Positions 8,945-48,462 of a stretch of DNA of 64,000 nucleotides are shown here, one piece after another. Source of the stretch: Methanoregula sp. PtaB.Bin085 (GTDB taxonomy: Archaea > Halobacteriota > Methanomicrobia > Methanomicrobiales > Methanospirillaceae). A model generated the notes under the pieces. That model was given only the letters and a program-made list of their open reading frames with translations. It was not told where the DNA came from and did not search any database. Numbering within the stretch: the first letter of the stretch is position 1; each line of letters opens with the position of its first letter. The stretch is from NCBI RefSeq assembly GCF_002067035.1, contig NZ_MVQB01000060.1:103499-167498 (forward strand), written 5' to 3'. The translations under genes were made by a program, and so were the position numbers.

Positions 8945-9425
8945 CCGGATCAATCAATCTTTGATTTTCACTTTCATCAAACCCTGGATGAAAATTGCGG
9001 GTATTCCTGTACCCGCTTGTTGGACTCAGAGTGTCCAGCATTTTTCAGCAGATTTTGATCGAAAAATTTTCAGCAAGGATCGATTAGTGATTTTCAAACG
9101 CGATTACGATCTCGATTGAAATTCTGATTCGGATCAATCAAGCTTTGATTTTCATTTTTCCATCAAACCCTGATTGAAAAATTTTCAGCAGACTTTGATT
9201 GAAAAATCGCAGGTGAACTTTGATTAAAAACCTGCTGCATGATGAAATGCTCCGACGTATTCCCCGGATTGTTGCTGTGGAGGATCAGCTTAACTTTTTG
9301 CAGGCAAACCCTGATTAAATTTTTTTCAGCAGACTTTGATTGAAAAATTTTCTGCAAGGTTTGACTGGTGTTTTTCAAACACGATCATGATCGCGATTGA
9401 AAACGTAAGCCGGATTAATCGAAAC
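8945..9425. repeat. AT-rich degenerate tandem repeat array (about 140-bp unit, about 3 copies)
   Basis: tttcagcaga[c/t]tttgat[c/t]gaaaaat occurs at 9043, 9183 and 9324 (spacing 140 and 141 bp). An 80-nt block at 9041-9120 is about 80% identical to 9322-9402. ccggatcaatcaa...catcaaaccctg[g]at(t)gaaaa occurs at 8945 and 9129, with a partial copy at 9410. Confidence 0.8.
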
Positions 9426-9623
9426 GTGCTTGAAGACAGTCCGCTCTGTCGCGCTCATGCCAATGAAGGCGTTCCCGTGGATTTAGCCTGAAGAAACCGG
9501 AGAATTCTTCCGGAAAGAATCCCCGCTCATGCAACGATTCCTGCCCCGCCGCTCATAACACCCGGGCATCCGCCAGATCTGCAGATCATACTCCTTTTTG
9601 GCAACGGATGACAATCATTCTCT

Positions 9624-10367
9624 ATGCAGGTGACCTTCCTTGGCACCAACGGATGGTTCGATACCCCCACCGGGAACACAGTCTCAATCCTTGTCCGGAC
9701 ACGGGATTTCGACATCCTTTTCGATGCCGGCAACGGGATATACAAGGCTGACCGGTACATATCGCAGGAAAAGCCGGTGTACCTTTTTCTTTCGCACTTC
9801 CATATCGACCATATCGCCGGCCTCCACATCCTCGTCAAGTTCCGGCTGAAAAAAGGTCTGAAAATCTTCTGCATGCCGGGCGGCGCTGCTCTCCTCCATA
9901 CCTTCGCGGGGGAACCGTTCACGGTACCGCTGGAAAAACTCCCGTACCCGGTGACCGTTACCGAGCTTGAAGAGGGATCCCACACCATCCCGTTCCCTGT
10001 CGAGTGCCGGAGACTCGTCCATCCCGCTCCCTGTTATGGCTATCGCGTAGAGATCGACGGGAAGACTGTAACGTTCTGCACGGATACCGGCGTCTGCGAC
10101 AATGCCGTCACGCTTGCCCGGAATGCCGATCTCCTCATCACCGAATGCGGGCTGAAACCCGGCGAAAGCAGCCCGGACTGGCCCCATCTCAACCCGCAGG
10201 ACGCAATCGGGATAGCAAAAAAAGCCGGCGCAAAACGCCTTGTCCTGCAGCACTTCGGTGCGGAAGTGTACAAAACCCTTGACGAGCGCAGGGCAGTTGA
10301 GGAACAGTACCGGGATCTCTGTCCCGGCCTTGTTGCTGCAACTGACGGCCTTACCCTGGAACTCTGA
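9624..10367 (+). CDS. MBL-fold metallo-hydrolase (RNase Z-like)
   Basis: SHFHIDHIAG (HxHxDH) metal motif, 247 aa, beta-lactamase fold pattern. Confidence 0.85.
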   Translation: MQVTFLGTNGWFDTPTGNTVSILVRTRDFDILFDAGNGIYKADRYISQEKPVYLFLSHFHIDHIAGLHILVKFRLKKGLKIFCMPGGAALLHTFAGEPFTVPLEKLPYPVTVTELEEGSHTIPFPVECRRLVHPAPCYGYRVEIDGKTVTFCTDTGVCDNAVTLARNADLLITECGLKPGESSPDWPHLNPQDAIGIAKKAGAKRLVLQHFGAEVYKTLDERRAVEEQYRDLCPGLVAATDGLTLEL

Positions 10368-10713
10368 TCGGCCCCCGGTACCGGATTCAATGCAGGGAGA
10401 TTTTCCAGTGAAAATCAGGCTCGAAGATAAATGATGGGGGCTGATGCCCCCATACCCCCTGCAGGATAGTTGCCACCGCCCCGCGGGGGCGCTCCCGGGC
10501 GGCCTTCAAGTCCCGTTTTCCGGGAAAGTGCTCTTGCACCGCCGTGCCCCGCGAGGCATCGAATCCCGGAGAGATGAGATGTAGGAAGAGCCATCAGGTT
10601 CTTCGAAGGCCATGAGGCGGGGAGCCATCATAATTAACCACGATTCAGGTGATTTCAAGCCTTGAATGTGGGCCTTATCAGGTTCATGCCCGTTTCCAGA
10701 GAGCCAAAAATTG

Positions 10714-11289
10714 TTACTCACCGATCTTCTTCATCAGCCATGCCATGTTCTTCCCGAGCGTCTGCATGGTCATGATCCCTTCCTCGTCGCTCTTCACATC
10801 GCCCGGTGCGAGCCCCAGGCCGATATTCCAGTAGGATGATCCCGGGACAACCATCTGGCTGATGAAGAAGAAATGATTCATGGTGTCAAACGCATGGATG
10901 GCCCCGCCCCGGCGGACTGCCACGACTGCTGCGCCCACCTTGCGCCGGAACATGTCCTGGTTTGCCTTCGCCACGAACCCGGCCCGGTCGATCAGGGCCT
11001 TCATCTCGGTGGAAACATCCGTGAAGTACGTTGGCGATGCAAGGATGATCCCGTCGGCATCCAGCATCTTTTCTATACATTCATTCAGGATATCGCCCTT
11101 CACCGCACACCGCTTGTCCTGGTTGGTAAAACACTTTCCACAGGCTGTGCAACCCCGGATCTTCTTTCCCGAGAGCTGGACAAGTTCGGTTTTTATCCCT
11201 TCCTTCTTCAGTTCCTTAAAAACGGTATTGACAAGGATGGCGGTATTCCCATCCCTGCGTGCGCTGCCATTGAATGCAACTACCTTCAT
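10714..11289 (-). CDS. isf: iron-sulfur flavoprotein / NADPH-dependent FMN reductase family
   Basis: MKVVAFNGSARRDGNT flavodoxin-like N-terminus plus a compact CTACGKCFTNQDKRC (CxxCxxCx7C) cluster motif characteristic of Isf. Confidence 0.8.
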   Translation of the reverse strand: MKVVAFNGSARRDGNTAILVNTVFKELKKEGIKTELVQLSGKKIRGCTACGKCFTNQDKRCAVKGDILNECIEKMLDADGIILASPTYFTDVSTEMKALIDRAGFVAKANQDMFRRKVGAAVVAVRRGGAIHAFDTMNHFFFISQMVVPGSSYWNIGLGLAPGDVKSDEEGIMTMQTLGKNMAWLMKKIGE

Positions 11290-33528: not shown

Positions 33529-34497
33529 TCATATCTTCTGCCTGAGTTCCTGTATCAGAGCATCGCCGAATTCACGGGTCCCGGTGGTTCCTCCCAGATC
33601 CCTGGTACGAATTCCCCGGTTCAGTACCTGCAGTACGGATTCCTCAATACACCCGGCACCGTTCGGGTCGCCAAGATGATCGAGGAGCATGGCTGCGCTC
33701 CGGATAGCTGCAACAGGGTTTGCAATATTCCTGCCTGCGATATCGGGAGCGCTCCCGTGGACCGGTTCGAAGAGAGCATAGCGATCCCCGATGTTCGCGC
33801 TTGGCACAACGCCAAGGCCTCCCACGAGGTATGCCGCGACGTCGGAGAGGATATCGCCGAACATGTTCGTTGTGACAACCACATCGTAGCTCTTCGGGTG
33901 CTGGAGCAGGTCAAGGGAGAGCGCGTCAATGAACCTGTCGTTGCAAGCGATATTGGCAGCCTTTGCTTCGGAAAGACAGATATCCCGGAAAAAAACGTCT
34001 GATTTGATGACGTTCGCCTTGTGCCCGATGGTCAGGATACCCTTTCTCTGCCGGGCAAGATCAATTGCTTTTCTGATAATCCGTTCTGTACCCTTCCTGC
34101 TGACAACCCGCAGCGTTGTAGCGCGATCGGGGGTCGTCTCTTCAATGCCCGAGTAAAGCCCTTCCGTGTTCTCACGGACGATCATGATATCGATGCCATC
34201 TCCCCTCACAGGCCGGAGATTGGCATACAGATCGAGCGCTTTACGGATCCGCAGGACAACGCTCTGGTAATCCTTCATCGGGGGTGTGGTTATTGCACCG
34301 AACAGGATAGCATCCGAGTTTTTCAGTTGCGCGATATCCGGGTCCGTGCAGGGACATCCTGTCCTCTCCCACCTGCCGTAGCCAACCTCGACATTGAAAA
34401 AGTCATACTCGGGATGCAGCAGTTCGAGCACGCTGCGGGCAACCGGAATAACTTCATGACCGATCCCGTCACCCTCCACGACTGCTATCCGGGTCAT
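33529..34497 (-). CDS. aksF: homoisocitrate / isopropylmalate dehydrogenase family (probable AksF)
   Basis: [16 protein letters not shown]...LFGAITTP...[14 protein letters not shown]...IVRENTEG...NMFGDILSD. Last gene of the aks operon. The aksF versus leuB assignment rests on context. Confidence 0.8.
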
Positions 34498-35294
34498 CCC
34501 CGCCTCCCGCGCGCTGCCAGGGCCCGGACTGCCTCAAGGATCTTTACCGGTTCTGATCCCCAGTGGACGATAGCGCCGCTTTTCCCGTTCCACGATGACA
34601 CTGCTTCCCGTTCGCTCCGGCAGCAGCGGGCTATGAAAGGTTCTTCCCTGACACATTCAAGCGGGCAGATATTGGTGATGGTAAAATCCGAACCGTAACA
34701 TTCGTTCAGGAACTGGGTGGCAGTCAGACAGCCGGCAACCTGCTCCCCGCCATGCATGGCATCGGCATCGAGGGTCCGGGCAAACCCTCCGGCCCGGCAG
34801 GGGTATACATCCGCGCGAACCTCGGTGATATCCCGGATATGGTGCACGAACTGCACATTAAGGTTGCCAAAAAGCCCGGCATTCTCAAGTTCACGGATAC
34901 CGGACGAAAGGCTTGGCCGTGGCGGGCTCACGTCATAGACATGTATCTTCAGGAAACCTGACAGATCGGGATCGAGAACAAAGGTCATGTGTTCGTCGTG
35001 GCCGGAAAAGATCGTGCAGCGGTATCCCGTGTCGAGAGCCAGTTCAACGAGGCGTGTGCGGTTGTGGAGGTTTACCTTTTCCGGATAGTGATAGACCTCG
35101 TTCTCACGGGCGAGGACCCGACTCGAGACAACCTGCCTCATCATGCCTTTGTGGGTCTGGTCCAGGGTAACTTCGAGCAGCTCGTGTCCACCGGAAGTGT
35201 CCCGCAGCAGCCACCGGCTTAAAAAATAAACCCTTTCGTCGCAGGGTTTTGCCGATGCATGACCGACATGCTTGCAGTGCTCCGGAAAGATCAC
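34494..35294 (-). CDS. uncharacterised Cys-rich protein embedded in the aks operon
   Basis: 266 aa if started at GTG 35294 (GTGA overlap with the aksE stop). The 3' end makes an ATGA overlap with the aksF start. Contains CPLEC...CC and several His. No family recognised. An alternative ATG (MMRQVV) would leave a 145-nt gap. Confidence 0.55.
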   Translation of the reverse strand: MIFPEHCKHVGHASAKPCDERVYFLSRWLLRDTSGGHELLEVTLDQTHKGMMRQVVSSRVLARENEVYHYPEKVNLHNRTRLVELALDTGYRCTIFSGHDEHMTFVLDPDLSGFLKIHVYDVSPPRPSLSSGIRELENAGLFGNLNVQFVHHIRDITEVRADVYPCRAGGFARTLDADAMHGGEQVAGCLTATQFLNECYGSDFTITNICPLECVREEPFIARCCRSEREAVSSWNGKSGAIVHWGSEPVKILEAVRALAARGRRG

Positions 35295-35761
35295 GGACGC
35301 CCCCTCCAGTACCTGATCAGGCCTCCCGCTGCGAGAATGTCCCGCATCCTCGGGGAAAGGGGCCGGATAGAATAGGTATTCCCGCCGGTTTCCACGCATC
35401 CTGCCGCGAGATCGAATTTCACATTCTGCCCTTCCACGCACGGAAGGCTGCATTCTATGGCCGGAAGACCGACATTTATGGCATTCCGGAAAAAGATCCG
35501 GGCAAATGACGGTGCAATTACTGCTGTAACACCAGCTTCCTTCAGCGCCAGCGCTGCCTGTTCACGCGAGGACCCGCAGCCGAAATTCTTTCCGGCTACA
35601 ATGACCGCCCCGTTCATCCGGGCTGCAAGCGAGGGATCGAGATCCTCGAACACATGGGAAACCCATATTCCGTGATCCTTTGTTCTCAGGTAACGCCCGG
35701 CTATGATCAGATCCGTGTCGATGTCCGGACCGAGACAGACCGCATGACCTCCCCCCTGCAT
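35291..35761 (-). CDS. aksE: homoaconitase small subunit (AksE/HacB)
   Basis: LeuD-like swivel domain (DTDLIIAGRYL..., GKNFGCGSSREQAA). The specificity loop reads YLRT with Arg26-Thr27, the homoaconitase-type residues of M. jannaschii HacB. Confidence 0.85.
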   Translation of the reverse strand: MQGGGHAVCLGPDIDTDLIIAGRYLRTKDHGIWVSHVFEDLDPSLAARMNGAVIVAGKNFGCGSSREQAALALKEAGVTAVIAPSFARIFFRNAINVGLPAIECSLPCVEGQNVKFDLAAGCVETGGNTYSIRPLSPRMRDILAAGGLIRYWRGRP

Positions 35762-36970
35762 TCATCCCACCTCCGGTTCGGTGATCTCACCAGTGAGGGC
35801 GCTCGCACCAGCGGTTGCAACGGATGAGAGATATATTTCTCCGCCAACTCCCATCCGGTTCCTGAAATTCCGGTTTGCTGTGGAGAGGCAGACTTCGCCT
35901 TCACCAAGAACCCCCATGTGCGCCCCGAGACACGGCCCGCAGCCGGGCGTACCGATCGTGCATCCCGCCGCCACGAGATCCGCGATAACCCCCGTGCGGA
36001 TCGCTTCTGAAAGGACTGCCCGCGATGCCGGGACAACAATGGTCCGTACTGCAACGTTCTTTCCTTTCAGGATCCCTGCAAGGCGGGCAAGATCGCTGAA
36101 ACGCCCGTTTGTGCAGGCACCGACAAAGACCTGGTCGATAGGGATACCGGCCAGGTCACTGACGGGTTTTACCGTGTCCACCCGTGGCGGCACCGCAATG
36201 AGCGGGACGATATCGCTCAGATCAAATTCCAGTTCCCGGCTGTACATGCAGGAGTCCGGGACCTGGGGCTGAACTTTCTGTCCCTTGCCTGCAAGGTACT
36301 GCAAGGTAATGTGGTCAGCATAGAACATGCCGGTCTTGGCACCGGTCTCCACCGAGAGATTGCAGAGCGTCAGCCGGTCATCCATTCCAAGGTTCTTTAC
36401 CCCGTCTCCAATAAATTCGAGGGCACAGTATGTCCCTCCGTCCATCCCAAGCCTGCTGACATACAGGAGGGCGAGGTCTTTTGCCTCCGCACTACCCTGC
36501 AGCGACCCGGTGAGGCTGATGCCGATGGAGTCCGGGACCCGGAACCAGGTCTCTCCGGTCAGCCATATCGCTGCCATGTCCGTTGCACCGACACCGGTCG
36601 CGAACGCACCGAACGCGCCGGGTGTACAGCTGTGCGAGTCGGCCCCGACAACCACCTCGCCTGGCAACACGACACCTTCACTCATCAGCTGATGGCAGAT
36701 CCCGCCTCCGATATCGGAGAAGTGCATGAACGACCCGCAGGCAAAATCACGGAGTTCGTGCTGGAGGGTGGCCGTGGTGGAGTTGTTCGCCGGGACGATG
36801 TGGTCGAAAAGAACATACAGGTCCGGATCGTCGCTCAACCGGTTGCCCATCTGCTTCCAGGTTTCGAGTGTCAGCACACCGGTCCCGTCGTGGACATAGG
36901 CCCGGTCCACTTTCCTGTCCACATACTCCCCTGCATCTGCTCCGAGGATTCGTTCCGAGAGCGTGCTCAT
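35762..36970 (-). CDS. aksD: homoaconitase large subunit (AksD/HacA)
   Basis: Aconitase-family large subunit (VGADSHSCT, ...GACTNGR..., PGCGPCLG cluster ligands). Start at MSTLSERILG (ATG 36970) forms an ATGA overlap with the aksA stop. Confidence 0.85.
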   Translation of the reverse strand: MSTLSERILGADAGEYVDRKVDRAYVHDGTGVLTLETWKQMGNRLSDDPDLYVLFDHIVPANNSTTATLQHELRDFACGSFMHFSDIGGGICHQLMSEGVVLPGEVVVGADSHSCTPGAFGAFATGVGATDMAAIWLTGETWFRVPDSIGISLTGSLQGSAEAKDLALLYVSRLGMDGGTYCALEFIGDGVKNLGMDDRLTLCNLSVETGAKTGMFYADHITLQYLAGKGQKVQPQVPDSCMYSRELEFDLSDIVPLIAVPPRVDTVKPVSDLAGIPIDQVFVGACTNGRFSDLARLAGILKGKNVAVRTIVVPASRAVLSEAIRTGVIADLVAAGCTIGTPGCGPCLGAHMGVLGEGEVCLSTANRNFRNRMGVGGEIYLSSVATAGASALTGEITEPEVG

Positions 36971-38094
36971 GCAGGAGACTCCTTTACTTTCCGGATCAGC
37001 TTCCTCAGCACCTCCGGCGTTATGTTGCACTTGTGCTCGGAATGGTCCTTGACAAGGTCGAGCACCCTGCAGACCTGCTTCTCCGAAAGCTCACAGCCCA
37101 TTGAGGAGACGACATGTTCGAGTGCCTTCTTCCCGGTGTGTTTCCCGAGGATGAAATGCCGCTCGCTGCCCACGAGATCCGGAGGGAAGTACTCGTACGT
37201 GGCGGGATCGTCGAGAATGGCGGCAATGTGGATTCCGCTCTCGTGCGAGAACGCAAGCTCCCCGGTGACGGGCTTGTTCCGCGGGAGGGAGACACCGGAA
37301 TACTTTTCCACCATGTGCGAGAGTTCCGTAAGGTGCGAGAGGTCGTAGCGGTCGATCCCCTTCTTCATCCGGAGGGCGACGAGAAGCTCCTCGAGCGATG
37401 CGTTCCCCGCCCGCTCCCCGATTCCGTTGACCGTGGTATGGAGCTGGAAGGCACCTGCCTCAGCAGCCGTGATTGTATTAGCCACCGCGCAACCCATGTC
37501 GTTGTGGCAGTGGGCACAGAATGGCCGGTCTACGGATGCGACAAGCTCGGTCATAATCCGCTGCATGTCGGAGGGTATGAGGCAGCCCACGGTATCTGCG
37601 AACGAGAGCAGGACTGCACCGTGCTCTGCAGCCCGCCGGTATACCTCCTTGAGGAAACCGAGATCCGTCCGGGATGCGTCTTCGGCAGCAAACCGTACCT
37701 GGACACCATGGTCACGGGCATAATCGATCATTCTCAGGGAGTCCTCAAGTACCTGATGCCGGGGTTTTTTGAATTTTACACGGACATGGAGTTCCGAGGT
37801 CGGGATGAAGATACTGACCATGTCGACACCACAGTCGATTGCGGTCTGGATATCGGCTTCCTTTGCCCGCGAGAAACCACAGATACGGGCATCGAGCCCG
37901 AGATGTGCTATGGTTTTCACACACTCTTTCTCATTTGCCGACACCGCCGGGAACCCGGCCTCGATGACTTCGATCCCGATCTCGTCGAGTCTGGTTGCGA
38001 TAGCAACCTTCTCCTGGCAGGAGAACGAGACTCCAGGCGTCTGTTCCCCGTCCCGCAGGGTCACATCACAGATCTCAATATGCAACGGTTTCAT
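36967..38094 (-). CDS. aksA: homocitrate synthase-type 2-oxoacid:acetyl-CoA condensing enzyme (probable AksA)
   Basis: DRE-TIM core (ICDVTLRDGEQTPGV...HCHNDMGCAVAN...GIGERAGN). Only 375 aa, so it lacks the LeuA/CimA C-terminal regulatory domain, as AksA does. Confidence 0.8.
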   Translation of the reverse strand: MKPLHIEICDVTLRDGEQTPGVSFSCQEKVAIATRLDEIGIEVIEAGFPAVSANEKECVKTIAHLGLDARICGFSRAKEADIQTAIDCGVDMVSIFIPTSELHVRVKFKKPRHQVLEDSLRMIDYARDHGVQVRFAAEDASRTDLGFLKEVYRRAAEHGAVLLSFADTVGCLIPSDMQRIMTELVASVDRPFCAHCHNDMGCAVANTITAAEAGAFQLHTTVNGIGERAGNASLEELLVALRMKKGIDRYDLSHLTELSHMVEKYSGVSLPRNKPVTGELAFSHESGIHIAAILDDPATYEYFPPDLVGSERHFILGKHTGKKALEHVVSSMGCELSEKQVCRVLDLVKDHSEHKCNITPEVLRKLIRKVKESPA

Positions 38095-39346: not shown

Positions 39347-40311
39347 CCGTCCCTCCCCGGAACGAGATCGCATCCGCAGCAGTTCGTGCACATCGTGACA
39401 GCCTGCCAGGGATCGAGACCTGCTTGTTCAAGTGCGTCTTTGTGGATGGCAAAGATCTTCCTGAGCCGTTCCGCGGTCGGCCGGGGCGTCCCGGCCATCC
39501 CGGCAACCGGGTTGAGGGGTCGAAGGACCGGGATGACCCCATGGGATGTCAGCTGCCGGATGCATGCCTCCATCTCATCATCTGTTTCCCCAAGGCCGAT
39601 GATGACATTGGAAAAGACGCGGTTCTTTCCGAAGAGTTCCACGGATCGATCGAGAACCTGCCAGAGCAGACCGTAATCGAGGCCCGGGCACATCTGTGCA
39701 AAAAGATCAGGGGTCGCTGCCTCGAGATTGAACTTCACTTCCGCAACTCCGAGTGCCTTCAGCCGATCGGGAGTCTGCCCCGTGGGATAGATCGAGACAC
39801 CGATGGGGAGGTTAAAGAATGTGAGGTGTTTTACGACATTCAGCACGTATGCCTCCTCCTCTCCGATGGTCTCAAGGACTCCGCTGGTGACGGAGATCGC
39901 ATGGATTCGGTGCACTGCCGGTTCAACCATCCCCATGATCTCCCCGATGGTCTTACGCCTTCCCCCGAGGGTCGGGACCGGGCAGTACCGGCACCTGAAT
40001 ATACAACTACCGGTGACCGTGATGAACGCCTGGTCGGGGCAGTGGTACCCGGGTTCCAGAAGCCGTCCTGTGGCCTGGTTCCCGTCATAGAAGAGATCCG
40101 CAATCCCGTTCCCGCGGTGGGCGATCTCGATATCTCCCAGAGGGTCCAGCGCGAGCCTGACGCGGTGGCTCCCCATGGCAAAGAAGACTGATCCCTTCCC
40201 ACCGGCTCCCGGGCCGGCAGCTGAACGGGCAATGAACTGGTCCGCCGGCTCACCGCTCAGCCGGGCCGTCCCTGCTTCGAGCAGCCTTGCCTTCAGGTCT
40301 TTCCACTGCAT
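39343..40311 (-). CDS. radical SAM enzyme (BioB/LipA-like core) with C-terminal CxxCCxC motif
   Basis: CIFRCRYC (CxxxCxxC) after an approximately 100-aa N-terminal domain; IIGLGETDDE motif; C-terminus MCTNCCGCDL. Confidence 0.85.
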   Translation of the reverse strand: MQWKDLKARLLEAGTARLSGEPADQFIARSAAGPGAGGKGSVFFAMGSHRVRLALDPLGDIEIAHRGNGIADLFYDGNQATGRLLEPGYHCPDQAFITVTGSCIFRCRYCPVPTLGGRRKTIGEIMGMVEPAVHRIHAISVTSGVLETIGEEEAYVLNVVKHLTFFNLPIGVSIYPTGQTPDRLKALGVAEVKFNLEAATPDLFAQMCPGLDYGLLWQVLDRSVELFGKNRVFSNVIIGLGETDDEMEACIRQLTSHGVIPVLRPLNPVAGMAGTPRPTAERLRKIFAIHKDALEQAGLDPWQAVTMCTNCCGCDLVPGRDG

Positions 40312-41189
40312 AATTCCAGCGCCTCCTCATACCGGGTAAAGAAGGGGATTGCCGCCACAGCCCCCGTAATGCCCCGCCCGTGGATGATAATACGGAGACA
40401 AGGGTCCCGGATCGATGAAATGAGTCCGGAATCGACCTCTCCCCGTTTGACCTTCCTTCCGTATTCAAGCAGATTGTCTGATACGGAAAAACCGGAATAC
40501 ACCGCCATGCCGGTCTTCGTTGAGAGGGTGTATTTCTCCAGCAGCGTACGGAACCTGCTGATGAGGCTTTCCGGATCAGTTGTCGCGAACTCAGCAGCCA
40601 GAGCAACACAGTTCTTGGTGCGGTACGCAACCGGGAAGAGCTGCACAATCGTATGCGACAGGTACACAGTATGTTCATCCTCAACTGAACGGGAGATATT
40701 GTGGACGAGTGTCCATGTCGCTCCCTCATCAGGAGTATCCGTATCATCTACGCCGATCACGATCCGCTGCATCCGTTGCAGCCAGAGGGTGGCCCCGGCA
40801 ACTTTCCCGCCACCGGCAGGATCGCTCCTGCTCCGCAGTACGCCTGTGGCATCGGACCGGCAGGCCGCAGCTCCCACACCTCCGCCACCCATACCGATAT
40901 ACGTCACTGCGATCTCGTCGCCGTCAACAATGCAGGACGAGATTCCGGCAGGAAACCGCGAACCCTCAAGAGCCAGATCGACACTCCCGGCCTTCAGGAG
41001 ATACCGCATGGTGGAACCTACACAGCGGACATCTTCAACAATCGGACTCTGCGCATAGTGCTTTTTCGACCACATTGCCCCGCCGGTACAGTCAAAGAAC
41101 TCGATGAGCTCGACCCGCTTTCCTGCCGAATCGGCCACCGCCGCGATCCGCGGGTAGTGGATCACGTACGGATCAGAGATGCTCTCCAT
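40293..41189 (-). CDS. TiaS-kinase-domain-like protein, paralogue 2
   Basis: 298 aa. The C-terminal half has IVIGVDDTDTPDEGATW...VQLFPVAYRTKNC...IHGRGITGAVAA, resembling the N-terminal kinase module of tRNA agmatidine synthetase TiaS (from memory). N-terminal Gly-rich loop GMGGGGVGAAAC. Paralogous to 41173-42129. Confidence 0.7.
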   Translation of the reverse strand: MESISDPYVIHYPRIAAVADSAGKRVELIEFFDCTGGAMWSKKHYAQSPIVEDVRCVGSTMRYLLKAGSVDLALEGSRFPAGISSCIVDGDEIAVTYIGMGGGGVGAAACRSDATGVLRSRSDPAGGGKVAGATLWLQRMQRIVIGVDDTDTPDEGATWTLVHNISRSVEDEHTVYLSHTIVQLFPVAYRTKNCVALAAEFATTDPESLISRFRTLLEKYTLSTKTGMAVYSGFSVSDNLLEYGRKVKRGEVDSGLISSIRDPCLRIIIHGRGITGAVAAIPFFTRYEEALELCSGKT

Positions 41190-42129
41190 ACAGGCCTGCC
41201 GCCTCGGTTCCCCTATTGCCCCATACTACGGCCCCGAGAGCCCCGATCCGTCCCTTTCCGCCGGTCCGGTCGAGATACTCGATTCCCAGCGTTTCTGCTT
41301 CACGCTCTGCCTCATCCATAGAAAGGATTTCGGTCTTGATCCACTTCGCAACGGGTGCATCGGAAAAATCCCTGATCCCGTGGTAACAGGCTATGCCGGT
41401 CTCCCTGGAGAACGTGTTCTTTTCCACGAATGCCCGGACCGATTCCAGCAGGACCGGGATCCGGGCCGGCTTCACCGCGAAGTTCAGGGAGGTACTGACG
41501 CAGTTCGTGGTTTTGTGCGGGACCGCGGGATTGAGCTGGACGAGCCGCATATTCAAAAACTCGACTCCTTCCATCCTGCAGGCTTCGGCACACTTCAGTG
41601 CCATTACCCACGTCGCCCCGTCTGTCTTCGTGTCCGTGTCATCGATACCGATACAGATTTTCTCGTACCGCGGCGAGACGATACGGACATGGTTGGTCCG
41701 GGCACCGCCAACTTTTAAATCCTCATCAGAAGGATATTCCGTTCTGATGACGCCGGGGGCCTGCGGGAGGCAGGCTGCAACGCCAATACCGGCACCCGCA
41801 ATCCCTGCCCAGCTGGTGATCACCTCGTCTCCCGCGACTTCGACGCCTTCCAGCGCCTGCCCTCCGATATCCCCGGCTGCCGATCCGAAGTTCACCGGGA
41901 ATTTCCCGAGCTTTGCGTGAATGGTCATGGAGGACCCTTCAATCTCGCACCGGACAACTGCACCACCGGCCCTGCGACGGTTCATAGCATCCCATTCAAT
42001 TGTGCCCCGGACCCGGCACTGCTCATGGATCTCGGCAACGCCCGCCCGTTCATCCACCAGTACCAGGAATTTTTGTGCAAAGAGCGGCCCGAACCGCTTT
42101 TTCACGTCGTCAGGAATCAGGGTGATCAT
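41173..42129 (-). CDS. TiaS-kinase-domain-like protein, paralogue 1
   Basis: 318 aa. ICIGIDDTDTKTDGATW...RLVQLNPAVPHKTTNC...GGKGRIGALGAV plus N-terminal GIAGAGIGVAAC. First gene of the operon, with TTTAAATA (42174-42181) upstream. Confidence 0.7.
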   Translation of the reverse strand: MITLIPDDVKKRFGPLFAQKFLVLVDERAGVAEIHEQCRVRGTIEWDAMNRRRAGGAVVRCEIEGSSMTIHAKLGKFPVNFGSAAGDIGGQALEGVEVAGDEVITSWAGIAGAGIGVAACLPQAPGVIRTEYPSDEDLKVGGARTNHVRIVSPRYEKICIGIDDTDTKTDGATWVMALKCAEACRMEGVEFLNMRLVQLNPAVPHKTTNCVSTSLNFAVKPARIPVLLESVRAFVEKNTFSRETGIACYHGIRDFSDAPVAKWIKTEILSMDEAEREAETLGIEYLDRTGGKGRIGALGAVVWGNRGTEAAGLYGEHL

Positions 42130-42173: not shown

Positions 42174-42181
42174 TATTTAAA
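42174..42181 (-). promoter_or_regulatory. TATA-box-like element upstream of the nine-gene operon
   Basis: The minus strand reads TTTAAATA about 45-52 nt upstream of ATG 42129, within the 87-bp gap after ftr. Confidence 0.35.
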
Positions 42182-42216
42182 AAGATCGATGTGAACCGGA
42201 AAATGAAAAAAAAAGG

Positions 42217-43101
42217 TCAGAGGACTTTGTGCAGATCGATTTTATAGGGACCGAGCGTACCGCCAAAGTTCCCGGCCGAGATAAACCTGACACCGGGTAC
42301 CATGACTGCAGCCCTGATACCAGCGGACATTGCCTCGGCAACCGACTTTTCATCAACCCCATCGATCACAATCTCGTACACTGCCTTAATTCCGGCAGGG
42401 ATCTTGCTGTCGGGGACTTTCTCGCGGAGGGTCGGGCAGTATTTTTCATTGGTGGAAGCAACCATGAATTTGTACTTGTTGCTGCCTACCTTTGAACCGC
42501 TTGCTACAATACCTCCGGGGAAGCTCGTGATGACACCCTTTACCCTGGCAATCGCATCGGATGCAGCCTGTGCACCCATGAGGGCTGCCATCTGGTTCTC
42601 ACCCATAACAAAGAAGTTGCCGCCGGCAACACCCTTGACGATGCCGAACTCTTCCTCACCGACATACTCCCCGTTCATGATCGGGATGACCCAGCACTTG
42701 CGGCCGCCGACTTCTTTCTGGTACTCGTATCCGTCGCCAAAGAAGTGGAGTTTCACCGGTATCTTTTCTTCGGCATTGGTAATGCCGTTGAAGACCGCGG
42801 TGGTTGGTGCCGTAAGAACGCACTCGGCGAGGCGCTCGACAACCTGCTCCTTCAGTTTCTTCTTACCGGCACAGATCAGGATGGCAACACCAGGGCGCCC
42901 GTCAGGAGTTTCTCCAGCCGGAACATCTCCCTCGATTCCTGCCTCGCACGGGCAGCCGATTGCCGATGTGGCAAAGCCGGTTGCCTCAGTTGCTGCTTTC
43001 CTCGCCCATTCAGTAGTGACCGCAGTTATGATAATCCGGCAAACCCATGTCGGGAATGCCTCTGCATACGTATTGTCAATTGTAACGCCATTGATTTCCA
43101 T
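42217..43101 (-). CDS. ftr: formylmethanofuran:tetrahydromethanopterin N-formyltransferase
   Basis: MEINGVTIDNTYAEAFPTW...FFGDGYEYQKE...GGNFFVMGENQ..., 294 aa, full-length Ftr. GGAGGT lies before ATG 43101. Confidence 0.95.
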   Translation of the reverse strand: MEINGVTIDNTYAEAFPTWVCRIIITAVTTEWARKAATEATGFATSAIGCPCEAGIEGDVPAGETPDGRPGVAILICAGKKKLKEQVVERLAECVLTAPTTAVFNGITNAEEKIPVKLHFFGDGYEYQKEVGGRKCWVIPIMNGEYVGEEEFGIVKGVAGGNFFVMGENQMAALMGAQAASDAIARVKGVITSFPGGIVASGSKVGSNKYKFMVASTNEKYCPTLREKVPDSKIPAGIKAVYEIVIDGVDEKSVAEAMSAGIRAAVMVPGVRFISAGNFGGTLGPYKIDLHKVL

Positions 43102-43420
43102 ACAATAACCTCCGGTACTACAAAGGTACCATGATGGTGACTGAATAAATTTTCTAATTTGATTTGGCTGTTTCTGACCGGAACGATAAGAATACAAGAG
43201 CGCAGAAAAAAACGGGAAGAAATGGATGGAAAAGTACACAAGATATCATTAACATAGCGATTTTAACGATTTACTTTTCCGGGAAGTATTTAAACAAGAG
43301 GAAAAGAAAATCGGATAAAAGCTCAGAAATTCTCGTTCAATTTCAGAACATTTATCTACATTCTTTTACCACGTTTTGTTAGTCGATTTTCAGAATCGAT
43401 CTATAGCTGGTGCGTGAAAA

Positions 43421-43519
43421 ATGGCATTTGCAGTGCAAATTATCAAGGAACATTGTACTGGCTGTAATAATTGTGTGGTTGCATGTCCTTATATGAACCG
43501 TGTTGTTTACCCGGTGTAA
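43421..43519 (+). pseudogene. 32-codon ferredoxin-motif mini-ORF (likely polyferredoxin N-terminal remnant)
   Basis: MAFAVQIIKEHCTGCNNCVVACPYMNRVVYPV* carries one perfect CxxCxxCxxxCP motif but is about 37% GC with atypical codons. It lies 57 nt upstream of the polyferredoxin gene on the same strand. Confidence 0.35.
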
Positions 43520-43575
43520 ATCCGTGTTCAAGGAAAGGGCAGGAGTGCAATAAGAAACAACGTGAGGGTTAATTC

Positions 43576-44751
43576 ATGGCATTGTTTCCCAAGTTTTCAA
43601 AAAAGAAAGACGGTGTTAACGTTGTGATGGAGCAGAGACTCCTCCAGAACGTCAACAACCTTATACTCAATGCAGAGACCTGCACGGGATGCGGCATCTG
43701 TGTCGACGCTTGTCCCGAGGAGGCAATCGTCCTCGGGCTTGTCGGTGCATCGCGGAGGGGTGCAATCAACTATGCAGCCCCCATCGATGTCGACGAGACC
43801 AAGTGTTCATACTGTGGTGTCTGTGTCATCATGTGCCCGTTCAATGCACTGACCCTGAAGGTTGACGGACAGGAGCGGCTCCCGATCATCGAGAAGGAAG
43901 GGTTCCCGCAGTACGATATGAAGGCGGAGATCGATGATGAGAAATGCGTGAAGTGCACGATCTGCGAAGAGGTCTGCCCGCGTGATGCCATCGACCGCAA
44001 TGTCCCGGCGTACGAAGGTACGTACAAGGGACCGGTTGCCGGCGCCAAGCCAAAAGCAGCCGCGATGAAGAAGAAGACGACTTTTACCGTAGACAAGGAG
44101 AAGTGTTCCCTGTGCGGCCTGTGTGGTGCGCTCTGCCCGGCCATTACCGTGAAGCACAAGAAATTCACGGCGGAGACCGGTAAAGTTGAGGGTGACGTCA
44201 TCTGGGACGAGACCAAGTGCGATGCCTGCAAGGTGTGTGTTGAGGCATGTCCCGAGGAATGCATCACCGTCGAGCGCGAGATCATCTCCGACAAGGTTGA
44301 CGGCAAGGTCAGCATCATCCAGGACAACTGCTGCACCTGCCGGTGGTGTGCGGTCAACTGCCCGACCGAGGCGATCACTGTCGATAAGATCTTCGAGGGC
44401 GACATCGAGTTCCACGCCGAGAAATGCCCCGGCGGCTGCTCGACCTGCGCGGACATCTGCCCGGCCAACGCGATCTACCTGCCGACTCCCAAAGCCGCAG
44501 CGGAGATGAAGCGTGATGGCAGAGAGCCGACCATCGCGGTCAACAAGGACTACTGTGTCCTGTGCGGCGCCTGTGTCAACGCCTGCCCCGGCGAGGACAT
44601 CATCGTCATGCAGCGTACCGGTGTCCGGATGAAAGGAACCGAGACTGACCTGTTCAAGAAGATCAAGGCCAAGCTCTTCACCAAGAGAACCTCAAAGGTC
44701 AAGGAAGAAGTGCCCGGCCAGGTCAGCATCAAAGTCATGGGGAAGGCATGA
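43576..44751 (+). CDS. polyferredoxin, eight [4Fe-4S] motifs (FwdF/FmdF-like)
   Basis: Eight CxxCxxCxxxCP-type motifs (CTGCGICVDACP, CSYCGVCVIMCP, CVKCTICEEVCP, CSLCGLCGALCP, CDACKVCVEACP, CCTCRWCAVNCP, CPGGCSTCADICP, CVLCGACVNACP). ATGA overlap with hdrC. Confidence 0.9.
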   Translation: MALFPKFSKKKDGVNVVMEQRLLQNVNNLILNAETCTGCGICVDACPEEAIVLGLVGASRRGAINYAAPIDVDETKCSYCGVCVIMCPFNALTLKVDGQERLPIIEKEGFPQYDMKAEIDDEKCVKCTICEEVCPRDAIDRNVPAYEGTYKGPVAGAKPKAAAMKKKTTFTVDKEKCSLCGLCGALCPAITVKHKKFTAETGKVEGDVIWDETKCDACKVCVEACPEECITVEREIISDKVDGKVSIIQDNCCTCRWCAVNCPTEAITVDKIFEGDIEFHAEKCPGGCSTCADICPANAIYLPTPKAAAEMKRDGREPTIAVNKDYCVLCGACVNACPGEDIIVMQRTGVRMKGTETDLFKKIKAKLFTKRTSKVKEEVPGQVSIKVMGKA

Positions 44752-45338
44752 TCATCATGGCACGAACGAAAGGTTACCCGGAAGCGCTGGAGAAGAAACT
44801 CCGCGACCAGCGATATTACCGTGAAGACTCCAATCCGGACTTCACCAAGAACGTCAAGGCAATCTCCCGCACCATCCCCCACATGTGCTACCAGTGCGGT
44901 ACCTGCACCGGCTCCTGCCCCTCGGCACCCCGCAGCTCCTACCGTATCCGCCACTTCATGCGGCGGGCGGTCCTTGGCCTCGAGAACGAGGCGCTCACCG
45001 ACCCCGACCTGTGGCTGTGCACCACCTGTTACAGCTGCTCGGACCGCTGCCCGCGGGACATCATCCCCACGGATGTCATCATGGCAATGAGGAACCTCGC
45101 TTTCAAGAGGGATATCGTCCCGGTCAACTTCCTCAAGACCGTGCAGGCAATCTACTCCTCCGGCCACGGCGTTCCCAACAACGACGTCAACAGGGCGGCC
45201 CGCGAGAAGCTCGGCCTGACCCGCGACCCGCCGACCACCCACATGTACCCCGAATACATCAAGGGTATCCAGAAGATCCTCGACCACTACAAGCTCAAGG
45301 CCAACGCGGACAGGATCGTCAAGGAGAGGGAGGGATAA
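44748..45338 (+). CDS. hdrC: CoB-CoM heterodisulfide reductase subunit C
   Basis: CYQCGTCTGSCP and CTTCYSCSDRCP motifs, 196 aa. Position directly upstream of hdrB. Confidence 0.95.
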   Translation: MIIMARTKGYPEALEKKLRDQRYYREDSNPDFTKNVKAISRTIPHMCYQCGTCTGSCPSAPRSSYRIRHFMRRAVLGLENEALTDPDLWLCTTCYSCSDRCPRDIIPTDVIMAMRNLAFKRDIVPVNFLKTVQAIYSSGHGVPNNDVNRAAREKLGLTRDPPTTHMYPEYIKGIQKILDHYKLKANADRIVKEREG

Positions 45339-45341
45339 GCC

Positions 45342-46265
45342 ATGTCAGAAGCAGGCGCAAACCACAAATTCGCATTCTACCTCGGATGCATCGCCCCCAA
45401 CCGGTACCCCGGTGTCGAATCGGCCTCCATCAAGGCCATGAAGAAACTGGGCGTGGAGCTCGTCCCCCTCAAGGGTGCCAGCTGCTGCCCCGCACCCGGT
45501 GCATTCGGCTCGATCGACCTCAAGGTCTTCTACGCCATGGCCGCACGGAACCTCGTGCTCGCCGAGCAGATGAAGATGGACATCGCCCTTGTCTGCAATG
45601 GCTGCTACAAGTCGATCTGGGAGGTCAACCACAAGCTCAAGCACAACAAGGACCTCCGCGATGACGTGAACGAAGTCCTCAAGGAGATCGACATGGAGTA
45701 CAAGGGGACCATCAACGTGTACCACACCGCGGAACTCCTGTACAACGACAAGTTCATCGGCGTTGAGAAAGTCCGCGACAGCGTGACGAATCCCCTGACC
45801 GGTGCCCGCATCGCCGTCCACTACGGCTGCCACCTGGTCAAGCCCCACAAGGACCGCGAGTTCGAGAAGGAAGTCATGCTCAACACCGAATGCCCGACCT
45901 GGATGGAAGAGCTTGTCGCCGCCCTCGGCGCAACCCCGGTCGAGTACCGCAACAAGATGCAGTGCTGCGGTGCCGGCGGCGGTGTCCGCGGGTACGATAT
46001 CGTCCACGCGCTGGACATCACCAACGAGAAGCTGTACAACCTTGAGGAAGTCAAGGTGGACGCCCTCACCGATATCTGTCCGTTCTGCCAGCTCCAGTTC
46101 GACCGCGGCCAGATCGAGATCCAGGAGAAACTCGGCGCCAGGCACAGCATACCGGTACTTCACTTCGCCGAACTCCTCGGCCTTGCACAGGGAATGAGCC
46201 CGCAGGAACTCGGGCTGGACCTCCACGGTATCAGCTGCGAACCATTCCTGCAGAAGGTGCTGTGA
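45342..46265 (+). CDS. hdrB: CoB-CoM heterodisulfide reductase subunit B
   Basis: Two CCG domains (...ASCCPAPG..., ...MQCCGAGGG...; CPFCQLQ), 307 aa. Confidence 0.95.
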   Translation: MSEAGANHKFAFYLGCIAPNRYPGVESASIKAMKKLGVELVPLKGASCCPAPGAFGSIDLKVFYAMAARNLVLAEQMKMDIALVCNGCYKSIWEVNHKLKHNKDLRDDVNEVLKEIDMEYKGTINVYHTAELLYNDKFIGVEKVRDSVTNPLTGARIAVHYGCHLVKPHKDREFEKEVMLNTECPTWMEELVAALGATPVEYRNKMQCCGAGGGVRGYDIVHALDITNEKLYNLEEVKVDALTDICPFCQLQFDRGQIEIQEKLGARHSIPVLHFAELLGLAQGMSPQELGLDLHGISCEPFLQKVL

Positions 46266-46275
46266 GGTGGTAAAA

Positions 46276-48462
46276 ATGGCAGAAAAGAAGAAAGCAACCA
46301 CCAAGAAAACCGAGTCCAAGAAAGAGGACACCAAGAAGGTAGCTCCCGTGAAACAGGAAGTCAAGAAGCAGGCAGCAGCACCTGCCGCAAAGCCCAAGGC
46401 AGCAGCCGCAAGCGCAGCTGCCCCGGCGAAGGCAACCGTCGGCAGCACTACCAAGCAGGGTGACGCACGCATCGGCGTGTTCATCTGCCACTGCGGTACC
46501 AACATCGCCGGTTCGATGGACATCGAAGCTGTCCAGGCATATGCAAAGACGCTCCCGAACGTTGCCTATGTTGATAACTACAAGTACATGTGCTCGATGC
46601 CCGGGCAGAGTGTCATCAACAAGGCAGTCAAGGAGAACAAGCTGACCGGTGTCGTTGTTGCTGCATGCTCGCCCCGTCTCCACGAGCCGACGTTCAGGAC
46701 CGCAACCAAGGAGTCCGGCCTGAACCCGTTCCGGTTCGAGATGGCCAACATCCGCGAGCAGAACTCGTGGGTGCACATGCACGACCGCGAAGGCTCGACC
46801 GACAAGGCAAAGGACGCAGTAAGGATTGCCGTTGCCAAAGCAGCGCTCCTCCAGGACCTCTTCCCCAAGAGCGTGCCGGTCGAGAAGGCAGCCATGGTCG
46901 TCGGTGCCGGTGTCGCCGGCATGCAGGCAGCCCTTGACCTTGCGGCAGCAGGGATCAAGACCTACCTCATCGAGTCCGACATGAGTATCGGCGGGCGCAT
47001 GTCCCAGCTCGACAAGACCTTCCCGACGCTCGACTGCTCGCAGTGTATCCTGACCCCGAAGATGGTGGATGTCGGCCGGAGCGACAAGATCGAGCTCATG
47101 ACCTGGTCCGAGGTCCACGAAGTCGAAGGGTACATCGGAAACTTCGACGTCACCATCCGGAAGAAGGCCCGCGGTGTCATGACGCCCAAGGAAGCGGAAG
47201 CGAAGGGCATCGTCGGCGGCGGCTGCAACGGCTGCGGTGACTGCGAGGCAGTCTGCCCGGTCGTCAAGCCCAACGAGTTCGAGATCGGCATGAAACCGCG
47301 GAAGGCCATCTACATCAACCACCCGCAGGTCGTGCCCCTGATCTACACCATCGACTTCAACTCCTGCGTCAAGTGCGGCCTCTGCGTGACCGCCTGCGGT
47401 CCCGAGAAGCGGGCAATCGACCTCGAGATGAAGGACGAGTTCGTCAAGGTCAAGGTCGGGACGGCTATCCTCGCGACCGGCTACGACATCTTCCCCATCG
47501 AGAAGAAAGAGGAGTGGGGATACAAGCGGTTCGAGAACGTTATCACGAGCCTCGAGTTCGAGCGGCTTATCTGCGCATCCGGCCCGACCGGCGGCCACCT
47601 GGTCCGCCCGAGCGATGGCCAGACCCCGAAGAGGGTCGCATTCGTGCTCTGTGCAGGCTCCCGTGACAACACCGGCACCGGCAAGCCCTACTGCAGCCGG
47701 TTCTGCTGCATGTACTCGCTCAAGCACGCCCACCAGATCATTGAAAAGATCCCGGGATGCGTTCCCTACATCTTCTATATGGATATCCGTTCCTTCGGCA
47801 AGATGTACGAGGAGTTCTATTACCGCATCCAGGACGAGGGTGCGAAATTCATCCGCGGCCGCGTGGCCAATATCCTCGAGGATCCCAAGACCAAGAACCT
47901 CCATGTCATGACCGACGATACACTCCTGAACCGCCCTGTTGACATGGAAGTCGACATGGTTGTTCTCGCGGCAGCAATCCAGCCCAAAGAAGACACGAAC
48001 CGGACCCGCAAGCTCTTCGGTGTCTCCTGTTCCATGGACGGCTGGCTGCTCGAAGCCCACCCGAAGCTGAACCCGTGCGGAACCACCACGGCCGGTGTCT
48101 TCCTTGCCGGTGTCTGCCAGGGGCCCAAGGATATCCCCGACACGGTAGCATCCGCAGAAGGTGCGGCATCCGCGGCATCCATCCCGATCCACATGGGAGA
48201 AGTCGAGCTCGAGCCCTACTTTGCCTCCTGTATCGAGGAGAAGTGTGCAGGCTGCGGCATGTGTGTCAACCTCTGCCCCTACAGCGCTCTGTCGCTCGTA
48301 GAGAAAGATGGCCGGACCGTGATGCAGGTCACCGAGGCCAAGTGCAAGGGCTGCGGTACCTGCGGCGGATTCTGCCCCGGTGGCGCAATCTGGATGAATC
48401 ACTTTGCAACGCCCCAGATCGTTGCTCAGATCGATGCCTTCCTGCTCGGAGGTGAGCAGTAA
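46276..48462 (+). CDS. hdrA: CoB-CoM heterodisulfide reductase subunit A, with Lys/Ala/Pro-rich N-terminal extension
   Basis: HdrA core from ARIGVFICHCGTNIAG onwards, with an FAD fold (VVGAGVAGMQAAL) and several CxxCxxCxxxCP motifs. ATG 46276 is preceded by GAGGTGG. The ORF track starts at GTG 46267. Confidence 0.95.
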   Translation: MAEKKKATTKKTESKKEDTKKVAPVKQEVKKQAAAPAAKPKAAAASAAAPAKATVGSTTKQGDARIGVFICHCGTNIAGSMDIEAVQAYAKTLPNVAYVDNYKYMCSMPGQSVINKAVKENKLTGVVVAACSPRLHEPTFRTATKESGLNPFRFEMANIREQNSWVHMHDREGSTDKAKDAVRIAVAKAALLQDLFPKSVPVEKAAMVVGAGVAGMQAALDLAAAGIKTYLIESDMSIGGRMSQLDKTFPTLDCSQCILTPKMVDVGRSDKIELMTWSEVHEVEGYIGNFDVTIRKKARGVMTPKEAEAKGIVGGGCNGCGDCEAVCPVVKPNEFEIGMKPRKAIYINHPQVVPLIYTIDFNSCVKCGLCVTACGPEKRAIDLEMKDEFVKVKVGTAILATGYDIFPIEKKEEWGYKRFENVITSLEFERLICASGPTGGHLVRPSDGQTPKRVAFVLCAGSRDNTGTGKPYCSRFCCMYSLKHAHQIIEKIPGCVPYIFYMDIRSFGKMYEEFYYRIQDEGAKFIRGRVANILEDPKTKNLHVMTDDTLLNRPVDMEVDMVVLAAAIQPKEDTNRTRKLFGVSCSMDGWLLEAHPKLNPCGTTTAGVFLAGVCQGPKDIPDTVASAEGAASAASIPIHMGEVELEPYFASCIEEKCAGCGMCVNLCPYSALSLVEKDGRTVMQVTEAKCKGCGTCGGFCPGGAIWMNHFATPQIVAQIDAFLLGGEQ

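Follow-up and report, generated by a model that had tools for sequence, protein, structure and literature searches.

What do two tandem genes whose products carry the kinase domain of the tRNA-modifying enzyme TiaS contribute to an operon for the synthesis of a methanogenic cofactor? The question is raised by a 64,000-nucleotide (nt) stretch of DNA from the archaeon Methanoregula sp. PtaB.Bin085 (contig NZ_MVQB01000060.1, positions 103,499 to 167,498; hereinafter, the window), in which an earlier reading of the letters alone, the first-pass annotation, had noted such a pair at 40293-42129. This interval corresponds exactly to two minus-strand open reading frames (ORFs), for proteins of 318 and 298 amino acids (aa), and the two-domain plan and all the motifs quoted for them are present at the places given. 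We propose, with a probability that we put at about 0.5, that the 298-aa protein, which is identified below as methanogenesis marker protein 11 (Mmp11), provides the ATP-dependent activation step of late coenzyme B (CoB) synthesis, most likely by phosphorylating the carboxyl group of 7-mercaptoheptanoate in preparation for the formation of the amide with threonine. The two proteins would thus be the best available candidates for an ATP-dependent last step of CoB synthesis.

The two ORFs overlap by 17 nt and are the only members of their family within the 64-kb window. Their products show 32% identity over 200 aa (BLASTP, E 6e-22) and are, therefore, paralogues; in both, the N-terminal domain is specific to the family and has a Gly-rich loop, and the C-terminal one is a TiaS-type kinase domain (TCKD). 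The AlphaFold2 (AF2) models, for which alignments of 57 and 53 diverse relatives served as inputs, have pLDDT values of 93.5 (298-aa protein) and 95.8 (318-aa protein) and a pTM of 0.92, and the secondary-structure elements come in identical order in both.

The assignment of a TiaS-type kinase module, made in the first-pass annotation from motifs, is supported by Pfam, by phmmer, by a profile of the family and by Foldseek. Pfam PF22641 (TiaS_TCKD) matches the 318-aa and 298-aa proteins with 58.3 and 45.6 bits, respectively (cut-off 27), although the full-length alignment of the domain rests on PDB sequences and on structure comparison, not on the Pfam model. Among the PDB sequences, phmmer with the 318-aa protein retrieves Archaeoglobus fulgidus TiaS chains across the entire kinase domain (E 2e-5), and a profile of 57 family sequences aligns with TiaS residues 1-151 at E 9e-25 for Pyrococcus furiosus and 1e-14 for A. 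fulgidus. TiaS structures are also the top Foldseek matches of both models (3amt, E 5e-8 for the 298-aa and 3e-9 for the 318-aa protein), with a root-mean-square deviation of 2.5-2.7 A over approximately 150 columns of the 402-420-residue TiaS chains. Besides DDTD and GATW, the 318-aa protein contains KTTNC and GKGRIGAL, and the 298-aa protein RTKNC and GRGITGAV; in the alignments, KTxNC is paired with K52-T53 of TiaS, GxGxxGA with G139-A145, and the threonine of GATW with Thr18. The DDTD motif, the Thr18 equivalent, KT and GxGxxGA vary little or not at all across the 57 family members and are retained by each of the four clades, so the DDTD and GATW positions that the first-pass annotation had singled out are indeed conserved. 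By both sequence and predicted structure, the homology of the kinase domains is genuine and well above chance.

Judging from their domain content, neither of the window proteins is a TiaS. With NF040849, the NCBIfam model of TiaS equivalogs (cut-off 600), the 318-aa protein reaches 42 bits and the 298-aa protein has no match at E <= 0.01. Both chains end within approximately 20 residues of the GxGxxGA motif and, because they stop just past the kinase domain, neither the OB fold nor the zinc ribbon follows it, as sequence ends, models and Foldseek coverage agree; their absence had been noted in the first-pass annotation. Pfam PF08489 (TiaS_FLD) produces a borderline match of 28 bits to residues 173-239 of the 298-aa protein, within the stretch that aligns to the TiaS kinase domain, and none in the Pfam scan of the 318-aa protein. 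Thus, the window proteins share a homologous TCKD and its motifs with TiaS (PDB 3AMT, 3AMU, 3AU7, 4RVZ and 5XOB; 3U02 from P. furiosus) but are only 20-27% identical to it, carry an unrelated N-terminal domain ahead of the kinase domain, belong to a family from methanogen-type archaea, and are encoded in a cofactor operon; given this location, their substrate is presumably a small molecule rather than tRNA. The signature chemistry of TiaS consists in the phosphorylation of a carbonyl oxygen followed by displacement of the phosphate by an amine. In 2011, Terasaka et al. and Osawa et al. reportedly found that the oxygen phosphorylated is that of C34 and that Thr18 is autophosphorylated; we take the latter residue to be equivalent to Thr173 of the 318-aa protein and Thr158 of Mmp11. 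By analogy, the same type of chemistry, namely, ATP-driven phosphorylation of an oxygen and subsequent attack by an amine, is likely in the window proteins.

The TIGR03280 match of the 298-aa protein spans positions 1-291 of the 292-position profile and, at 323.7 bits, exceeds the curated cut-off of 255.8; on this evidence, the protein is a full-length Mmp11. By contrast, the 318-aa protein scores 185.3 bits and other members of its clade 156-234 bits, all under the cut-off; from its position on a separate branch, it is a divergent Mmp11 paralogue with a clade of its own. The family is tied to MJ0921 of Methanocaldococcus jannaschii because a Methanobacterium homologue bears the source name 'putative protein MJ0921'. 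It is small, with 328 clusters matched at E <= 1e-3 in a set of 1.84 billion representatives, and a neighbour-joining tree of 57 full-length representatives consists of four clades: Mmp11 proper, the 318-aa type, a type of approximately 375 aa with an N-terminal TrmB-like helix-turn-helix (HTH) domain, and a divergent fourth type. The named matches, listed as found and not as a systematic phyletic profile, come from Methanomicrobiales, Methanobacteriales, Methanomethylicia and Methanofastidiosa. The first-pass annotation had allowed that this might prove to be a known marker family with a different, demonstrated activity: a marker family it is, and a demonstrated activity did not turn up, given that within the accessible full-text literature, subscription journals lying outside the search, we found neither a function for Mmp11, MJ0921 or DUF1743 nor a connection between TiaS and CoB.

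The connection to CoB proved stronger than the first-pass annotation could have seen from the two genes, with AksA, HacAB and AksF encoded in the same operon and Mmp11 linked to aks, TPP-enzyme and radical SAM genes in distant lineages. In the window, nine minus-strand genes, close-packed or overlapping, encode, in this order, the paralogue, Mmp11, a radical SAM protein, a thiamine pyrophosphate (TPP) enzyme, AksA, HacA, HacB, a DUF7714 protein and AksF (Table 1). By its gene content, this unit is a CoB synthesis operon headed by the paralogue and mmp11. Sequence features favour the 2-oxosuberate branch, that is, CoB, over leucine synthesis because AksA shows only the HMGL-like and HCS_D2 domains and because HacB has the YLRT loop, which we take to be a marker of substrate specificity.

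This gene setting is conserved. The genome scan covered the best 80 loci, all from Methanomicrobiales (Methanoregula, Methanoculleus, Methanolinea), and contexts outside this order were reached one protein at a time. The block of genes for Mmp11, the radical SAM protein, the TPP enzyme, AksA and HacA occurs in all 80 loci as far as the contig extends, and that for HacB, DUF7714 and AksF in 63-64 loci, those with a contig long enough to include it, with DUF7714 retained between HacB and AksF in 64 related loci. Beyond Methanomicrobiales, mmp11 is found next to or among aksA and TPP enzyme genes in clusters of differing order (L082, L083, L090 and L091 in Table 1). The TPP enzyme is IOR-alpha-like in Methanomicrobiales and acetolactate-synthase-like in L082, L083 and L090, a pattern suggesting that a non-orthologous enzyme has taken the place of the presumed 2-oxosuberate decarboxylase. 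Whereas the TPP enzyme and the redox partner vary in type among lineages, Mmp11 is constant and is the sole conserved candidate ATP-using enzyme in the aks-linked clusters. Such a consistent placement of Mmp11 across phyla, read from gene order, appears to be new.

The list of the late steps of CoB synthesis draws in part on White's labelling work. The steps without an assigned gene are the decarboxylation of 2-oxosuberate, the conversion of the aldehyde to the thiol, the ATP-dependent formation of the threonine amide and the phosphorylation of threonine (PMC3087415). In papers from 2025 and 2026 (the latter PMC12978539), the late CoB steps and MtxX are still without an assignment, and a 2025 preprint on Mmp16 treats the formation of the CoB thiol as open. 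The homology and fold of the proteins, the conservation of their motifs, the structure of the operon and the synteny across lineages are shown here, and from them we infer substrate, chemistry and partnership along the following lines. AksA, HacAB and AksF would make 2-oxosuberate, with the TPP enzyme, the radical SAM protein and DUF7714 as candidates for decarboxylation and thiolation. Mmp11 would then phosphorylate a carboxylate oxygen of 7-mercaptoheptanoate: moved onto a carboxylate, the chemistry of TiaS would yield an acyl phosphate open to attack by threonine, and the amino group of L-threonine would capture it, either on the enzyme or with the help of a partner such as MtxX (Mmp4). Solow and White reportedly found in 1997 that the amide bond of CoB forms via such an acyl phosphate. 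The threonine hydroxyl could be a further target of this active site; such a second, hydroxyl-directed activity is conceivable because the Thr18 equivalent is conserved. A like logic operates in ATP-dependent carbonyl activators of the YcaO type, in which the carbonyl oxygen is phosphorylated and a nucleophile displaces the phosphate; no sequence or fold relationship to these enzymes was found here.

Several points weigh against the assignment of Mmp11 to carboxyl activation. The PF22641 match covers just the first 60 or so positions of the model in both proteins. The functional claims are built from sequence, structure prediction and gene context, and binding of the substrate by the N-terminal domain is a guess because this domain has no recognizable relative. 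Among the nine Mmp11 contexts outside Methanomicrobiales, three (L081, L089, L092) are uninformative or loose. The recurrent linkage to the radical SAM gene is left unaccounted for by a ligase role and could indicate a sulfur step. Finally, an assignment of Mmp11 may have been published in the subscription literature.

A candidate for a partner is MtxX, the gene for which lies inside the aks/mmp11 clusters of L082 and L090 and, in L084, directly upstream of a gene of the 318-aa clade. The three products score 186 (L082), 174 (L090) and 203 bits (L084) against TIGR03270 (Mmp4/MtxX; cut-off 190), with an E of 1e-26 for the match to PDB 9NZY (MTH_231). A paper of February 2026 describes a phosphotransacetylase-like structure of MtxX and leaves the function unresolved; neither coenzyme B nor Mmp11 turned up in a term search of this paper (PMC12978539). 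A kinase gene beside a gene for a phosphotransacylase-fold protein suggests formation of an acyl phosphate and subsequent acyl transfer, by analogy to the acetate kinase-phosphotransacetylase (Ack-Pta) pair, with the kinase making the acyl phosphate and MtxX transferring the acyl group. Unlike in Ack-Pta, however, the TCKD is unrelated to the acetate kinase fold, the acceptor would be the amine of threonine and not CoA, and the partnership is read from three gene contexts only, there being no mtxX gene within the 64-kb window. A joint construction of the CoB amide, in which Mmp11 makes the acyl phosphate, MtxX moves the acyl group to threonine, and Mmp11 or its paralogue phosphorylates the threonine, is a tentative and, on balance, rather doubtful extension of the proposed role of Mmp11.

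Among the alternatives to carboxyl activation, Mmp11 might be solely the kinase of the threonine hydroxyl in 7-mercaptoheptanoylthreonine, with the amide made by an enzyme encoded elsewhere. Phosphorylation of a threonine hydroxyl is, from what is reported of Thr18 in TiaS, within the repertoire of the fold, and this threonine is conserved in the family; however, the clusters of L082, L083, L085, L090 and L091 contain no conserved ATP-grasp, ANL or other ligase gene that could make the amide, and the chemistry by which TiaS is said to stand out is carbonyl-oxygen phosphorylation with ensuing amine attack. On these grounds we consider this possibility unlikely.

The first-pass annotation had named two reactions for this chemistry, which can be read as a division of labour, in which one paralogue would be the 7-mercaptoheptanoate:threonine ligase and the other the 7-mercaptoheptanoylthreonine kinase. 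The head of the operon is, indeed, occupied by two catalytically intact, translationally coupled copies, two ATP-dependent CoB steps lack an assigned enzyme, and the paralogue, at 61-86% identity across loci, is about as conserved as its neighbours. Nevertheless, only 59 of the 79 informative Methanomicrobiales loci have the 318-aa gene between ftr and mmp11, and five of the 20 loci without it (L020, L023, L027, L049, L059) retain, in the ftr-mmp11 spacer, N- or C-terminal paralogue fragments of 35-71 residues, which therefore testify to recent, independent and repeated deletions. Moreover, a single family member is encoded in the clusters of Methanomethylicia, Methanofastidiosa, L085, L090 and L091, and the genes of the 318-aa clade in L084 and L087 lie outside aks clusters. 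Because it is missing from the aks-linked clusters of other lineages, the 318-aa protein is not the sole enzyme of a universal step, and a strict partition of the two reactions, which is not supported as such, seems improbable. From this distribution, the 318-aa protein is a Methanomicrobiales-centred duplicate that has kept its catalytic motifs and is dispensable in many relatives and, because of that dispensability, would therefore be an accessory or partly redundant enzyme or the partner in a hetero-oligomer. It is possible that, where retained, it specializes in, or assists, one of the CoB reactions.

Another scheme would have Mmp11 and the radical SAM protein, perhaps together with DUF7714, install the thiol at C7, for instance, with ATP activating an oxygen for replacement by sulfur. 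In Methanomicrobiales, L085 and L090, mmp11 lies next to, or in a cluster with, the gene for an orthologous radical SAM protein (34-37% identity over the full length among the window, L085 and L090 proteins), the radical SAM protein is distantly LipS2/BioB-like, and DUF7714, the gene for which also follows mmp11 and the radical SAM gene in L085, shows a weak relationship to XcbA, which is encoded in the bacterial gene cluster for coenzyme M (NF052538, 57 bits in the window; scores of 57 and 119 bits against a cut-off of 150). Against this stand the clusters of Methanomethylicia and Methanofastidiosa, which have mmp11 without this radical SAM gene, and the Mmp16 preprint, passages of which present aldehyde-to-thiol conversions as sulfur transfer with electron input and name no ATP requirement. 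We give this scheme little credence, and much the same holds for some other methanogen-specific role, such as modification or maturation of methyl-coenzyme M reductase or the synthesis of another cofactor, with the aks linkage reflecting co-regulation only. The latter would suit a 'marker' family of unknown function, aks genes are missing from some of the contexts, and two further clades, one of them HTH-fused, lie outside aks clusters; but linkage to aksA or TPP enzyme genes recurs in at least five lineages, with differing gene orders and partner types, and because it recurs in such varied arrangements, co-regulation is hard to sustain without a shared pathway. Finally, modification of tRNA or another RNA, as in TiaS, which is suggested by the common kinase domain and by database names, can practically be dismissed in view of the NF040849 score, the lack of the OB fold and the zinc ribbon, the apparent restriction of the family to methanogen-type archaea, compared with the general presence of TiaS in archaea, and the location of the genes in a cofactor operon.

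Methyl-coenzyme M reductase draws its electrons from CoB, which, for this reason, is needed by every methanogen and every anaerobic oxidizer of methane or alkanes. Labelled compounds revealed the course of the pathway around 1990, and the genes for its last steps have, to our knowledge, remained unassigned ever since. That these proteins are homologous to TiaS can already be read from Pfam and from names in databases, and the family was known as a marker; new, it would seem, are the consistent placement of Mmp11 in CoB clusters across phyla, the candidates listed for the missing steps and a possible partnership with MtxX, none of which is connected with CoB in the literature accessible to the search. 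The locus and its relatives provide a short list, namely, Mmp11, its paralogue, the radical SAM protein, DUF7714, the TPP enzyme and MtxX, each of which can be assayed directly. The only enzyme from which we know the TiaS kinase fold to date acts on tRNA; should Mmp11 prove to be the activating enzyme, the fold would turn out to serve small-molecule chemistry as well, a function would be assigned to at least one of the 'marker' proteins, and a methanogen-specific target for inhibitors aimed at methane mitigation would become available. Were the joint action of Mmp11 and MtxX to be borne out, an Ack-Pta-like logic, implemented with unrelated or re-purposed folds, would close the last unassigned part of the pathway.

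Table 1. Positions of the genes, motifs and compared gene contexts; positions are those of the locus named in the first column
Locus	Feature	Position	Strand	Remarks
Window	318-aa gene, divergent Mmp11 paralogue ('imperfect marker 11')	41173..42129	minus	ORF list; N-terminal domain ~1-144, TCKD ~145-318
Window	298-aa gene, Mmp11 (MJ0921 family)	40293..41189	minus	ORF list; N-terminal domain ~1-130, TCKD ~131-298
Window	DDTD, 318-aa protein, residues 163-166	41632..41643	minus	aligned to TiaS D8-D9-T10-D11
Window	DDTD, Mmp11, residues 148-151	40737..40748	minus	profile alignment to TiaS
Window	GATW, 318-aa protein, residues 171-174	41608..41619	minus	Thr173 aligned with TiaS Thr18 (HMMER alignments)
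Window	GATW, Mmp11, residues 156-159	40713..40724	minus	Thr158 aligned with TiaS Thr18; nearly invariant
Window	Gly-rich loop GIAGAGIGVAAC, 318-aa protein, residues 109-120	41770..41805	minus	strand-loop-helix, AF2 model
Window	Gly-rich loop GMGGGGVGAAAC, Mmp11, residues 99-110	40860..40895	minus	N-terminal domain; G99, G102 invariant
Window	TATA-like TTTTTAAATA	42174..42183	minus	45-54 nt upstream of the 318-aa ATG; read by eye
Window	Radical SAM protein, 322 aa	39343..40311	minus	overlaps Mmp11 stop; distantly LipS2/BioB/variant-radical-SAM-like
Window	TPP enzyme, IOR-alpha-like with Cys motifs, 438 aa	38075..39391	minus	Pfam and NCBIfam
Window	AksA-type homocitrate synthase, 387 aa	36967..38130	minus	Pfam
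Window	HacA-type homoaconitase large subunit	35762..37030	minus	Pfam and NCBIfam
Window	HacB-type small subunit	35291..35761	minus	YLRT loop
Window	DUF7714 protein	34494..35453	minus	PF24830, 291 bits; between HacB and AksF
Window	AksF-type homoisocitrate dehydrogenase	33529..34497	minus	final operon gene
Window	ftr	within 42217..48462	minus	directly upstream of the operon
Window	Polyferredoxin-hdrC-hdrB-hdrA cluster	within 42217..48462		divergent from the operon
L081	Methanobacterium lacus context			HacAB-AksF ~3.5 kb from Mmp11
L082	Methanomethylicaceae context			AksA-MtxX-HacA-HacB-TPP (acetolactate-synthase-like)-Mmp11-GMC/FAD oxidoreductase
L082	mtxX	3721..4548		
L082	TPP enzyme	6351..7955		
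L082	GMC/FAD-type oxidoreductase	8920..10146		adjoins mmp11
L083	Methanofastidiosum context			Mmp11-AksA-TPP, beside GMC/FAD oxidoreductase of the L082 family
L083	TPP enzyme	2551..4143		
L083	GMC/FAD-type oxidoreductase	4129..5358		adjoins mmp11
L084	mtxX	7126..7986		
L085	Mmp11 context			Mmp11-radical SAM-DUF7714
L085	Radical SAM orthologue	8888..9853		
L085	DUF7714 protein	9856..10767		
L086	HTH-fused family member	7001..8122		
L089, L092	Mmp11 contexts			uninformative
L090	Mmp11 context			MtxX-TPP-radical SAM-AksA-AksF, divergent from Mmp11
L090	Radical SAM orthologue	4568..5593		
L090	TPP enzyme	5580..7106		
L090	mtxX	7099..7968		
L091	Mmp11 context			AksA-Mmp11
L091	Lipoate-protein-ligase C-terminal-like protein, 112 aa, and radical SAM protein, 282 aa	8977..10165		downstream of AksA-Mmp11

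As for the remaining features of the operon, an oligo-T run separates ftr from the TATA-like element, which is the probable promoter. The TPP enzyme is a candidate 2-oxosuberate decarboxylase, and the radical SAM protein a candidate for a sulfur or redox step of CoB synthesis. A route to biotin, with a pimeloyl intermediate and a BioB-like radical SAM enzyme, was considered and rejected because the BioB scores of 22-54 bits are far below the cut-off of 225 and because the family is apparently restricted to methanogens. The listed start of the DUF7714 gene overlaps hacB by 163 nt, and because of this overlap the true start is probably located downstream. The divergent hdr cluster encodes the enzyme that reduces the heterodisulfide and thereby regenerates CoB, and the arrangement of ftr and the hdr cluster beside the CoB operon is kept across the 80 related loci.

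In L082 and L083, the clusters lack the radical SAM and DUF7714 genes, and mmp11 adjoins the gene for an oxidoreductase of the GMC/FAD type. The two copies of this enzyme, 35% identical to each other, contain a ferredoxin-like Cys motif, and the enzyme may provide an alternative route for the aldehyde-to-thiol step. The radical SAM protein encoded downstream of AksA-Mmp11 in L091 is not similar to that of the window and, with the adjacent lipoate-protein-ligase-like protein, may belong to lipoate metabolism.

The N-terminal domain, approximately 130-145 residues ahead of the kinase domain, contains a strand-loop-helix element with the loop GxGGxGVG, as well as a second invariant GG pair; the loop is conserved in Mmp11 and in the 318-aa clade and is degenerate in the other two clades. 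No relative was detected with a profile of the domain against PDB sequences or with 23 member sequences run singly against Pfam. The best match, to the GxGxxG region of a flavoprotein, has an E of just 1.5, and the weak ferredoxin-like, ACT-like and PII-like Foldseek matches of this region all have E above 1e-3, too weak for a claim of an ACT or Rossmann relationship; we therefore treat the domain as apparently family-specific. Because of its strand-loop-helix shape, the Gly-rich loop might bind phosphate or carboxylate, a suggestion drawn only from the model.

Several NCBI records of metagenome-assembled genomes (MAGs) label the 318-aa protein 'tRNA(Ile2) 2-agmatinylcytidine synthetase', a misnomer and an over-annotation caused by the common kinase domain. 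Odd MAG labels on some family members, namely, Candidatus Deferrimicrobium (a bacterium) and Undinarchaeales, are probably binning errors. The contexts of a distant paralogue (L087), of an HTH-fused member (L086) and of a fourth-clade member (L088) are uninformative. The HTH-fused proteins (P0366; WP_257742565 from Methanoplanus endosymbiosus; the L086 gene) are annotated as sugar-specific transcriptional regulators; this clade retains DDTD, GAT and GxGxxGA and may represent a regulator based on the kinase domain.

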